A stretch of 64,000 nucleotides of DNA from assembly GCF_013315695.1 (NCBI RefSeq), contig NZ_CP054353.1. One strand, 5' to 3'. This document shows positions 17,790-19,964 of the stretch, in pieces. Numbering within the stretch: position 1 is the stretch's first letter; every line of letters begins with the position of its first letter. The position numbers and the translations under genes are program-made. Under the pieces are notes generated by a model that saw only the letters and a list, made by a program, of their open reading frames with translations, was not told the origin of the DNA and searched no databases. This DNA is from Escherichia coli (GTDB lineage: Bacteria; Pseudomonadota; Gammaproteobacteria; Enterobacterales; Enterobacteriaceae).

Positions 17790-19964
17790 CTATTTCTTGC
17801 TGTAATTGACCTGCAAACCGTATCCCTGCACGCCATCGGTTACCTGGGCACTAAACTTCGTTGCCGCTTCCTTGTTCGTTGCCGGGATCTCTATATCGGC
17901 GTTAGTGGTATTGGCTTGCGCACCGGTATTGCCATTCACGCTATGTCCCGTGAATTCCCACTGATAGTCATACTGTTTCATCTCCTCTTCAGTGAGTTTC
18001 TCTGATAGCTGGAACACGCCGTCTTTGTTAGCGTCACGCCACAACACAAAGCGATAGCTGCTATTGAGAGGCAACGGCTCTTTATTGCCGATAAGATTCA
18101 CGGGCTTAGCCGCACCAACACGATAGATAAAGGCATTCAGCCCGCCGATGTCAGAACCCAGGAACGTTACGTCAACATAGTTACTGTCATCATAGGGAGC
18201 GGCTTTCGCCTTCCAACGGAAGGTGCCAGGCAATGTACTGGAGAGCGTAACGGTCCCCTTTTCTTTATCTTGTTTGGCGATAAAGACACAGGGAGTCTCG
18301 GTAGTGCAGGGTTTATTCGCCAGCGTCACTTTTTTATCGTTGGCATCAAACAGCTGCGGGCTGAGATTATCCTGCGGCAAGACATTACCGTTACGGTCAG
18401 TGTTGTCGCCAAAGCTATCGGTAATGTCGAGATCCATGACGACACCATCTACACCATCCGCTTGCGCGCTGGCTTCGTGGCTGTGATTGTTCTCATCCGG
18501 TACATTGGCGATGTTGTTAACGATGAGCTCAATTTTACGATCCTGCTGAACGGTGATTTCCACCACGCCGGAGTTCTGCCGATTGCCTTTTTCATCTTCC
18601 AGCGCCAGCCGTACCCGCCAGGTATTGAGTTTTTCCTGGTCGGCTTTATCAGAGCTGTACTGCCAGGCAGGCAGCACCAGATTCCAGTGATTGTTGTTAC
18701 CTTCAGTAAGCGTATTTTCTTTGATAACCGGCATCACCAGCGTACGTGCAGCATTGTTTTTCGCCTGCCAGGAGGCAGCAACGATTTTGTAGTGATGGTT
18801 AATGAGCGCGTTAATGGTCCATTTACATTTTTCCAGCCCGATAGCGTCTTCAGGCGTATCTTTAATCACGCACTCGGGATGTTCATTCGTGGTGTCTGCT
18901 TTCAGCCACAAAGTGACGTCGAGGGGATCTTTTTCTTTGTATTCCAGAACAATAAAGTTGTTACGTTCAACAAAGTCATGACGGCTGCCCATAAGCGAGT
19001 GAGCCGCGCTCACTTTGTCAGGATCAAGCTGGTCTTTGAGCGGGACGCCAAACTGATAATTAAGCGTTGCGTTAACAGAAAGATCGGTATTATCGCCAGT
19101 GCCAGCTTTGAAATCTGTACCGACAGCAATGAGCGGAACGGGCTGGTATTTCACACCCAGCGTGACAGCGAAGGGATCTTTCTCCAGATTATCAGTGCCA
19201 AAAAGCGCGACTTCATTACCGTAATACTGTTCGAAAACAATTTTACCACCAAGCTGCGGATAAGCGGGAAGCCAGGCTTCGGCGCGAATATCCCAGCCGC
19301 GCGCAGGACGCTCCTCATAAAAATCGAAATCTTCGGAGTCTTTCCAGTCAGAAAGCGGGTGATAATAGTTGCCAGAGAATTTTAAATAATCAGTCCACGC
19401 TTCGGCACCTAAACCTAAACGGCGATGCCCACGGGTAAAATCATAATCATAAAATATATTTCCACCCAACAACCATTTATCAAAATTATGTCTTACACCA
19501 AGCCCAATATTCCCGATCGTACGATCTTCTTTTCGTTGTGCAGAAAATTGGCTGAAATAAACAGTAGTTTGATTATCATACCAGGGAACAAAATAGTCGA
19601 TGGAACTGCCATCCAGATCGCCGCCCTGGCCAAGAGAAAGATTCGTTCGAACCTTACCGTAGGGGGAGAGTGTATCCTCAATATAAGATTGTGTCGTAGA
19701 GGTAATTTGACTTTGCAGATAGCTTCTGGCCTGGGACTCCAGCGCCTCGGGTGTCAGGTTTTCAAACCCTTGCGTAGCGGAGTTAATGACGTAATCGGCA
19801 CCACGCTCTTTTAGCGATTTACCCTTGTTGGTTTGTTCTTCTTGTTGTGCGGCCTGACTACCTAAATCAGGTAATGATTCTTTATGCTCAACATTTATCT
19901 CTGGAGCCGCAAAAGCAGCCCCAGAGATAAATGTTAGCATAATACAGCGTGTCCATCGCAGCAT
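17790..19964 (-). CDS. sinH: intimin/invasin-family inverse autotransporter (SinH-like outer membrane adhesin)
   Basis: ORF track 17790..19994 (TTG); likely ATG start at 19964 (MLRWTRCIMLTFISGAAFAAPE signal peptide); N-terminal half reads as a beta-barrel domain (alternating aromatic/hydrophobic strands), C-terminal Ig-like passenger. Confidence 0.8.
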   Translation of the reverse strand: MLRWTRCIMLTFISGAAFAAPEINVEHKESLPDLGSQAAQQEEQTNKGKSLKERGADYVINSATQGFENLTPEALESQARSYLQSQITSTTQSYIEDTLSPYGKVRTNLSLGQGGDLDGSSIDYFVPWYDNQTTVYFSQFSAQRKEDRTIGNIGLGVRHNFDKWLLGGNIFYDYDFTRGHRRLGLGAEAWTDYLKFSGNYYHPLSDWKDSEDFDFYEERPARGWDIRAEAWLPAYPQLGGKIVFEQYYGNEVALFGTDNLEKDPFAVTLGVKYQPVPLIAVGTDFKAGTGDNTDLSVNATLNYQFGVPLKDQLDPDKVSAAHSLMGSRHDFVERNNFIVLEYKEKDPLDVTLWLKADTTNEHPECVIKDTPEDAIGLEKCKWTINALINHHYKIVAASWQAKNNAARTLVMPVIKENTLTEGNNNHWNLVLPAWQYSSDKADQEKLNTWRVRLALEDEKGNRQNSGVVEITVQQDRKIELIVNNIANVPDENNHSHEASAQADGVDGVVMDLDITDSFGDNTDRNGNVLPQDNLSPQLFDANDKKVTLANKPCTTETPCVFIAKQDKEKGTVTLSSTLPGTFRWKAKAAPYDDSNYVDVTFLGSDIGGLNAFIYRVGAAKPVNLIGNKEPLPLNSSYRFVLWRDANKDGVFQLSEKLTEEEMKQYDYQWEFTGHSVNGNTGAQANTTNADIEIPATNKEAATKFSAQVTDGVQGYGLQVNYSKK

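Follow-up and report, generated by a model that had tools for sequence, protein, structure and literature searches.

We find that the AT-rich 5′ end of sinH, an intimin-like inverse autotransporter gene on a stretch of Escherichia coli DNA (contig NZ_CP054353.1 of assembly GCF_013315695.1; the whole analysed stretch of 64,000 nucleotides is hereafter the window, and all positions are counted from its first letter), is an old, persistent trait of this gene in the clade formed by Escherichia, Salmonella, Citrobacter and Pseudocitrobacter, and not a seam between components of different origins. A preliminary description of the stretch had noted by eye that the part of the gene near 19400-19900 is AT-rich and the genes downstream of it GC-rich, and had suggested that this compositional mosaic may indicate different evolutionary origins of the components of an island; that interpretation is partly supported by the measurements reported here. 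Tentatively, we read the promoter and the promoter-proximal coding DNA of sinH together as a persistent domain of the kind that is silenced by the nucleoid protein H-NS and relieved by its antagonist LeuO.

Synonymous composition of sinH

The impression of AT-richness is borne out by measurement, with a GC content of 0.435 over 19400-19900 as compared to about 0.50 in the rest of sinH, 0.480 over the whole gene and 0.525 over the whole window. The same interval had been taken as barrel-encoding, which is correct for the first part of the barrel, the remainder encoding the signal peptide and N-terminal region. The features of the gene and of its upstream border are the following, where GC3 denotes the GC content at third codon positions (GC1 and GC2 being those at the first and second):

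sinH (iatB): 17790-19964, minus strand; intimin-like inverse autotransporter of 724 amino acids, identified by RefSeq annotation and Pfam
Low-GC3 5′ part of sinH: 18927-19964, minus strand; codons 1-346, encoding signal peptide, N-terminal region and beta-barrel; GC 0.456, GC3 0.41
Host-like 3′ part of sinH: 17790-18926, minus strand; codons 347-724, encoding the passenger; GC 0.501, GC3 0.585
Deepest AT trough: 19407-19580, minus strand; codons 129-186, GC3 0.21, from a two-changepoint fit
yfgJ-sinH spacer: 19965-20173, minus strand; 209 bp holding the sinH promoter region; GC 0.234
AT-rich block: 19281-20360, unstranded; near-contiguous, about 1.1 kb, comprising the sinH 5′ coding sequence, the spacer and most of yfgJ; GC 0.410

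In windows of 100 codons, GC3 ranges from 0.33 to 0.45 over codons 1-250 of sinH and from 0.55 to 0.62 over codons 350-724, the core genes of the window having a mean GC3 of 0.562 and a mean coding GC of 0.542. The best single GC3 changepoint falls at codon 346 (about position 18926), where GC3 passes from 0.408 to 0.585 with a log-likelihood ratio (LLR) of 11.4 and a permutation p=0.0005, and in none of the window's ten core genes with 400 codons or more does the changepoint LLR exceed 5.8. Its support interval is wide (codons 194-422, corresponding to 18698-19382 in the window), and a linear GC3 trend fits the gene nearly as well as a step (LLR 10.0 vs 11.4). The trough is also seen, at codons 126-175, in the group means for Escherichia and Pseudocitrobacter; a locus with a mis-set sinH start (L023) slightly affects the positional means of the complete set and of Citrobacter, and is absent from the later analyses.

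The contrast sits at synonymous sites. Neither GC1 nor GC2 falls in the 5′ part, and codons 1-250 have an observed GC of 0.449 against the 0.509 expected from their amino acids and core codon usage (z=-5.8), while codons 251-724 come close to expectation (0.496 observed, 0.489 expected). For 17 of 18 amino acids, the 5′ part uses codons ending in G or C less often than the 3′ part (Cochran-Mantel-Haenszel p=9e-7). Hexamers composed of A and T only occur there at 41 per kb, an approximately fivefold enrichment, as compared to 8.8 per kb in the 3′ part, 6.1 in the core gene der and 210 in the spacer. At the scale of the window, 19301-20300 is the second most AT-rich kilobase (GC 0.397, for a mean of 0.525 and a standard deviation of 0.036), and the AT-rich block listed above is made up of two adjacent runs, 19281-19730 and 19781-20360, in each of which every 200-bp window is below 45% GC.

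Two genes follow sinH on the same strand:

sinI: 16742-17734, minus strand; SinI-family autotransporter-associated protein; GC 0.517, GC3 0.53, host-like
ratA-like giant adhesion-domain gene: 8557-16632, minus strand; 2691 amino acids with 9 BIg21 and 9 InvE_AD repeats; GC 0.555, GC3 0.61

These genes are GC-rich relative to sinH, as the preliminary description had it, but in GC, GC3 and codon-adaptation index both stay inside the span of the core genes; the index was computed with the core genes of the window as reference. The GC content of the ratA-like gene is near that expected from its amino acids and core codon usage (0.555 vs 0.547), its GC3 of 0.614 is equal to that of pepB and rlmN, and its GC2 of 0.512, the maximum of the window, is an effect of amino-acid composition. 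The sliding GC and codon-adaptation calculation that had been proposed as a check returns a low index for the 5′ part of sinH (0.58, with 0.67 for the 3′ part and 0.64 for the whole gene) and host-like values for ratA (0.66) and sinI (0.68), the core genes spanning 0.59-0.83. Overall, the island (8557-20173) is 53.1% GC and the window 52.5%.

Persistence of the AT-rich 5′ part and mosaic ancestry of the locus

Of the 9 fully annotated loci compared, 8 (from Escherichia, E. albertii, Salmonella and Pseudocitrobacter) have a low-GC3 5′ part; the ninth, from Citrobacter freundii, lacks the contrast and is low throughout. GC3 is 0.52 in the 5′ and 0.67 in the 3′ part of the Salmonella gene, 0.50 and 0.62 in that of Pseudocitrobacter, the changepoint of the orthologues lies between codons 252 and 400, and the spacer upstream of sinH is 23-34% GC in 9 of 9 loci. 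Shared by most orthologues, the low-GC3 5′ part is therefore older than the E. coli alleles.

To these loci we added a wider sample, obtained from a barrel-domain profile scan with one genome per species, of 80 further loci, 78 of which were analysed. Within the SinH clade, GC3 is about 0.09 to 0.19 higher in the passenger than in the barrel part in approximately 11 of 14 scorable loci, and the barrel part is 0.11-0.18 below the flanking genes in most loci; Citrobacter sp. FP75, Superficieibacter and Leminorella are the exceptions. In a sister clade with members in Rahnella, Hafnia, Buttiauxella and Ewingella, GC3 of the whole gene is 0.07-0.19 below the flanks with no internal contrast, and that of the sinI homologue ranges from about host level down to 0.13 below the flanks. 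In inverse autotransporter genes that are more distantly related (those of Gilliamella, Proteus, Yersinia, Budvicia, Serratia and Pseudomonas, among others), the passenger-minus-barrel difference is for the most part between -0.06 and +0.05; two Yersinia loci stand higher, at +0.09 and +0.10. Because these distant genes mostly lack it, the contrast belongs specifically to the group of SinH orthologues, and barrel-coding DNA as such does not entail it; a family-wide property of inverse autotransporters is rejected on the 78 loci, which span many genera.

What has been preserved is composition. In the barrel part, comparisons between genera find synonymous sites saturated (proportion of differing synonymous sites, pS, 0.71-0.80), and third-position divergence shows no conserved stretch in the AT trough of the kind expected of a conserved nucleotide element such as an RNA or a binding site, so that the composition has persisted while the sequence turned over. 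The barrel and passenger also share a deep history, since the sister-clade proteins align to SinH over its full length (40-43% identity over about 700 amino acids, with P0124 and P0125 aligning over SinH residues 3-721) and a sinI homologue lies downstream in 8 of the 8 sister-clade loci searched. Separately, SinH fragments are encoded on a 2014-bp contig labelled as a Collinsella sp. metagenome-assembled genome (L011, 91% identical) and on a 426-bp contig labelled Rhizobium wenxiniae (L053, 99% identical), both of which are most likely E. coli contamination of those assemblies.

The locus is nonetheless a recombination mosaic. We aligned the interval from xseA to der in four E. coli strains (that of the window, DP033, FP4 and N41), all of which carry the three genes at the same site, and two features emerge, dS being the synonymous divergence per site:

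Main ancestry junction in sinH: 18453-18621, minus strand; about codon 450-500, common to the alleles upstream and replaced downstream, placed by a jump in dS and by the end of protein similarity
Recently exchanged patch: 16384-17271, unstranded; 98-100% identical to DP033 within island DNA that is otherwise 88-95% identical, from sliding identity in the four-allele alignment

Identity between strains is 97-100% in der, 78-96% in the 5′ 1.4 kb of sinH, and down to 50-80% in the 3′ end of sinH, sinI and ratA against the FP4 and N41 alleles. Correspondingly, dS between E. coli strains is 0.01-0.08 in the flanking core genes der, bamB and hisS, reaches 0.3-0.9 in codons 1-480 of sinH against the FP4 and N41 alleles, and gives way to saturation (pS 0.75-0.78) in codons 481-724 and in sinI. 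The similarity of SinH to three further proteins, P0121 (902 amino acids), P0122 (701) and P0123 (1616), ends at residues 448-504; their first 450-500 residues are 73-74% identical to SinH and their C-terminal regions, two of them much longer, are unrelated to it. They have the appearance of natural passenger swaps, with the junction where the E. coli alleles also break. Exchange is also evident within the barrel-coding DNA, where N41 is 93-96% and FP4 78% identical to the window over a patch at 18746-19341, outside which the N41 and FP4 sinH alleles are near-identical.

The divergence extends into the bordering core genes. Relative to other E. coli, xseA of the window has a dS of 0.37-0.49, about the level of E. 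coli versus E. albertii core genes, and is 85-92% identical to that of DP033; its allele is found at 99% identity or more in 99 of 5425 genomes, 493 genomes matching at 80-90%. For yfgJ, dS between E. coli strains is 0.50, and in guaB identity drops to 93-94% over a patch at 5854-6453. The diverged xseA, yfgJ and guaB patch look like ancient allelic lineages that hitch-hike with the variable adhesin genes.

The conserved translocator, variable passenger and sharing of alleles seen here agree with what passages of two earlier reports describe, namely strong conservation of the signal sequence and of the translocation domain in iatB with variability confined to the passenger (PMC6714894), and sinH alleles that differ most in passenger domain 3 and are common to several phylogroups (PMC9937491). 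The compositional change does not mark the best-defined recombination junctions: the changepoint at codon 346 is distinct from the junction at codon 450-500, its support interval ends (at codon 422) about 30 codons before that junction, and GC3 is already host-like in codons 347-480, which are part of the conserved N-terminal unit. The suggested mosaic thus stands in that sinH is heterogeneous in composition and the segments of the locus have very different ancestries, and fails in that the junctions are elsewhere than the compositional change. With the ancestry junction at codon 450-500, the 5′ pattern present in orthologues, the barrel and passenger co-inherited, sinI and ratA host-like in composition and the locus syntenic across genera, the reading of the contrast as a mark of different origins of the island components is not supported.

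A candidate silencing domain and its alternatives

The persistence of the AT-rich 5′ end is a measured quantity; for its cause, we give a probability of roughly 0.45 to the reading that the promoter and promoter-proximal coding DNA of sinH constitute a persistent AT-rich domain under H-NS/LeuO-type silencing, and we infer both the binding of H-NS and selection for silencing as the maintaining force. The AT-rich block at 19281-20360, centred on the promoter spacer and extending about 700-1000 bases into the sinH coding sequence, owes its in-gene portion to synonymous codon choice (GC3 of about 0.2-0.45 over the first 250 or so codons, rising to 0.55-0.62 past about codon 350). In such a mechanism, promoter and early coding DNA would together serve as an AT-rich platform for silencing by H-NS-type nucleoid proteins, which would keep the adhesin operon off in ordinary growth until LeuO, as an H-NS antagonist, lifts the silencing of sinH; composition, rather than a specific sequence, would be what is retained.

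LeuO is a general and classical antagonist of H-NS, as the title of one work referenced in PMC6714894 reflects, and FdeC, another E. coli inverse autotransporter, is reportedly regulated by H-NS, going by the title of another paper referenced there. The promoter region of sinH is, as would be expected of a locus silenced by H-NS, markedly AT-rich over several hundred bases (41% GC in the block and 23% in the spacer, vs 52.5% in the window). According to passages of PMC6714894, expression of iatB (synonymous with sinH) is undetectable in laboratory culture, and over-expression of leuO raises iatB transcription in strain SMS-3-5. We favour the silencing domain because the AT-rich block joins spacer and coding sequence, A/T-only hexamers are enriched, and iatB is both silent and LeuO-responsive. 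Polarised synonymous changes imply an equilibrium GC3 of 0.39-0.45 for the 5′ part (59 events) and of 0.52 for codons 347-480 (44 events), which leans towards maintenance and is, given the small counts, only suggestive.

Several observations weigh against a silencing domain. The ratio of the rates of change from A/T to G/C (weak to strong, W-to-S) and from G/C to A/T (S-to-W) comes to 0.82, its 95% interval being roughly 0.49-1.38, which is compatible with slow amelioration, and our literature search for H-NS binding at sinH or at the CS54 island, the Salmonella counterpart of this locus, returned nothing usable for any strain. High-affinity H-NS sites follow a 10-mer consensus, TCGATAAATT, that is supportive and not strictly defining; allowing up to two mismatches, TCGATAAATT is not enriched in the region, with 1 match in 19200-20400 (0.83 per kb, vs 1.08 per kb in the window). 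Consensus scans of 16500-20500 for sigma-70 promoters found nothing above shuffled expectation, the same being true of terminators. Some orthologues do not have the step: the gene is AT-rich from end to end in C. freundii and Citrobacter sp. FP75, and without any AT-richness in Leminorella and Superficieibacter. The AT-richness of the entire sister-clade homologue relative to its flanks equally fits a purely historical account, and one gene alone does not allow a step to be distinguished from a gradient. A sigma-54 site reported inside Salmonella sinH (PMC3844500) is absent from the window.

The main rival is a historical relic account, in which the ancestral sinH-sinI operon was AT-rich throughout and amelioration has been uneven: the 3′ part of sinH, sinI and ratA would have moved to host-like or higher GC3, by repeated allelic replacement or GC-biased gene conversion in a recombination hot zone, and the 5′ part would lag without serving any function. 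We consider it possible, though on the unlikely side. The sister clade has the expected starting state, with its whole gene 0.07-0.19 below the flanks in GC3, no internal step and a sinI homologue between about host level and 0.13 below the flanks, and C. freundii and Citrobacter sp. FP75 would retain that state. Moreover, the parts that would have ameliorated (the 3′ third of sinH, sinI and ratA) are those with saturated allelic divergence and evident replacement, and the 35 W-to-S vs 24 S-to-W changes of the 5′ part are compatible with an upward drift of GC3, if few in number. Against this, divergence between genera at synonymous sites of the barrel part has reached saturation, such that a passive deficit should have decayed strongly, and it still amounts to 0.11-0.18 below the flanks in most SinH-clade loci. 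Low recombination is no obvious distinction of the 5′ part either, which itself recombines (the 18746-19341 patch), and codons 347-480 have host-like GC3 despite lying in the conserved, co-inherited N-terminal unit. Much less probable is the chimera implied by the preliminary description, a barrel module from an AT-rich donor joined to a passenger, sinI and ratA from a GC-richer one with the GC step as the seam. The best changepoint does coincide with the end of the barrel at residues 336-343, passenger swaps on SinH-like N-termini exist (P0121 and P0123), and the locus is demonstrably a recombination mosaic; but the changepoint is loose, with a near-equal linear trend and orthologue changepoints from 252 to 400, both the swaps and the allelic break fall at codon 450-500 rather than at the barrel end, the sister-clade homologues are alignable over their full length with sinI downstream, and sinI and ratA are host-like in composition. 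The chimera reading is, on this evidence, largely refuted.

Selection at the level of translation, whereby rare A/T-ending codons would slow translation at the start of a Sec-exported outer-membrane protein and so aid export or barrel assembly, appears similarly improbable. The codon-adaptation index is indeed lowest at the start of the gene, with 0.52 in codons 1-62 and 0.54 in codons 1-175 as against 0.67 in the 3′ part, and signal-peptide regions have been reported to be enriched in non-optimal codons; the effect in sinH, however, spans 250-350 codons, far past the signal peptide or a start-proximal ramp, and other inverse autotransporter genes that use the same export route mostly have no GC3 difference between barrel and passenger. 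A chance fluctuation or a by-product of amino-acid composition retains next to no credibility. Core genes have short low-GC patches too, as exemplified by sseB with 0.417 in a 100-codon window, but the sinH LLR is double the highest value in a core gene, independent orthologues repeat the pattern, and the amino acids of the 5′ part predict higher and not lower GC; both variants are rejected by the permutation, stratified and expected-GC tests given above. A more ambitious extension of the silencing-domain reading would hold that the AT-richness of the first kilobase or so is actively maintained at synonymous sites across genera, through a full turnover of those sites, as part of a silencing platform, and that diversifying selection on the passenger, sinI and ratA keeps ancient lineages in circulation, dragging xseA and yfgJ to species-level divergence; as a whole, we regard this combination as doubtful.

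The locus, its relatives and minor observations

The annotation used is that of RefSeq record NZ_OZ547117.1 (E. coli isolate AF3, from a blood culture), the sequence of which is identical to the window and in which 17790-19964 on the minus strand is exactly the annotated sinH. Residues 63-336 of SinH match Pfam IAT_beta (E=5.6e-106), and residues 101-343 align to the barrel structures of invasin (4E1T, E=8e-73) and intimin (4E1S). The protein is 99% identical to E. coli proteins named SinH and 74-80% identical, at 100% coverage, to Salmonella SinH. A Pfam scan of SinH returned no domain past the barrel; passages of PMC9937491 describe a C-terminal passenger of Ig-like domains with a receptor-binding domain at its end. 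The island is bordered by two core genes:

yfgJ: 20174-20389, minus strand; core gene at one island border, double zinc ribbon protein (Pfam Zn_ribbon_6)
xseA: 7136-8503, plus strand; core gene at the other island border, a deeply diverged allele

Between yfgJ/der and xseA lie sinH, sinI and the ratA-like gene, all on one strand, and the neighbourhood yfgJ / sinH / sinI / ratA-like / xseA is the same in the window and in the three other E. coli alleles. The order yfgJ-sinH-sinI-rat also holds in loci of Salmonella, C. freundii, a cryptic Escherichia clade, Pseudocitrobacter and E. albertii, with xseA next in every fetched locus that was long enough (the Salmonella sequence ended before that point), so that synteny from yfgJ to xseA extends over four genera (Escherichia, Salmonella, Citrobacter and Pseudocitrobacter). 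No tRNA gene is found in 6500-22000, and the annotation shows neither an integrase nor a transposase from xseA to der, flanking direct repeats not having been searched for. A compositionally foreign and recently acquired island is rejected in view of the host-like overall composition, the lack of tRNA or annotated mobility genes at the borders, and the synteny in four genera. Within the species, presence is patchy, with 750 of 5426 E. coli genomes carrying at least 80% of 16600-20500 and most matching that query at its der end only; passages of PMC9937491 place sinH in phylogroups B2, D, F and G. The allele of the window is rare, 5 of 5348 matching records being at least 99% identical over 16600-20500 and 175 being 95-99% identical.

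The locus described here, SinH/IatB, is already known; in E. coli it corresponds to the sinH-sinI-rat portion of the CS54 island of Salmonella. The published E. coli loci, with iatB and downstream EcSMS35_2660 in SMS-3-5 and sinH in extraintestinal pathogenic E. coli, have the same gene in the same position, and differ in that the window carries a rare allele; SMS-3-5 IatB has 725 amino acids according to a passage of PMC6714894, compared with 724 here. In Salmonella enterica, CS54 occupies the same site, from xseA to yfgJ/der, with sinH, sinI and ratA in the same order and ratB and shdA in addition. Its SinH is 74% identical to that of the window, and its gene likewise shows the internal GC3 contrast (0.52 vs 0.67), an AT-rich upstream spacer of 34% GC and, as fits the Salmonella background, a higher overall GC3. 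The Salmonella locus has a further large gene after the rat genes, in contrast to the single 2691-residue ratA-like gene followed by xseA in the window.

Alleles of intimin (eae) combine a conserved 5′ translocator part with a variable 3′ receptor-binding part. As a member of the same family, sinH resembles eae in having a conserved N-terminal translocation unit and a recombining, diversifying passenger; its variable part starts at about codon 450-500, and its compositional gradient is a separate feature. By analogy, sinH may also be compared to adhesins that are silenced by H-NS and relieved by LeuO (FdeC and the cryptic E. coli fimbriae), to which it appears alike in its AT-rich promoter, laboratory silence and LeuO response, although many silenced islands are AT-rich throughout and the sinH locus is so over its first kilobase only. 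The arrangement of an inverse autotransporter followed by barrel-less, passenger-like proteins further recalls ZirTSU, as passages of PMC4943183 and PMC6714894 have it, with a putative export of SinI and RatA via SinH that has no bearing on composition. The C-terminal 100 or so residues of SinI (16742-17090) are 32% identical to the C-terminus of SinH (17790-18100), which agrees with the resemblance of SinI to the SinH passenger noted in the literature and with the proposed ZirTSU-like arrangement.

The gene, its neighbours and site, the conserved translocator with variable passenger, and the LeuO-responsive silence are already published; the passages of the SinH/IatB literature at hand make no mention of a synonymous-site AT gradient in the 5′ part. 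Added here is that the AT-rich 5′ end of sinH is a measured synonymous-site effect, found in most orthologues examined and specific to the orthologue group, that it is no evidence of separate origins, and that compositional and recombination seams differ at this locus. The finding is ordinary and its value modest, chiefly that of careful annotation. Should the silencing reading be true, sinH would be a natural test case for coding DNA kept AT-rich to serve H-NS, and the result would bear on the in vivo expression of SinH, a vaccine candidate.

A further compositional feature lies at the start of the ratA-like gene:

Second low-GC3 5′ segment: 16339-16632, minus strand; ratA codons 1-98, GC3 0.39 vs 0.62 thereafter, changepoint LLR 10.7

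It occurs in the allele group of the window and DP033 only and is absent from seven other loci, the N-terminus of RatA being homologous in all alleles, and it overlaps the 16384-17271 patch shared by the window and DP033. Antisense to sinH, two long open reading frames on the plus strand, 18270-19385 (371 amino acids) and 19425-19814 (129 amino acids), are not annotated by RefSeq and are probably frame artefacts. Elsewhere in the window, the most AT-rich stretch, beyond even the sinH 5′ region, is 1721-2930 (about 37% GC), which holds small genes between pdeF and yfgH. Another AT-rich patch, 38651-39160 (41% GC), lies between sseA and sseB, where an IS1A copy (38093-38790) and the small toxin gene timP (39286-39411) are annotated.

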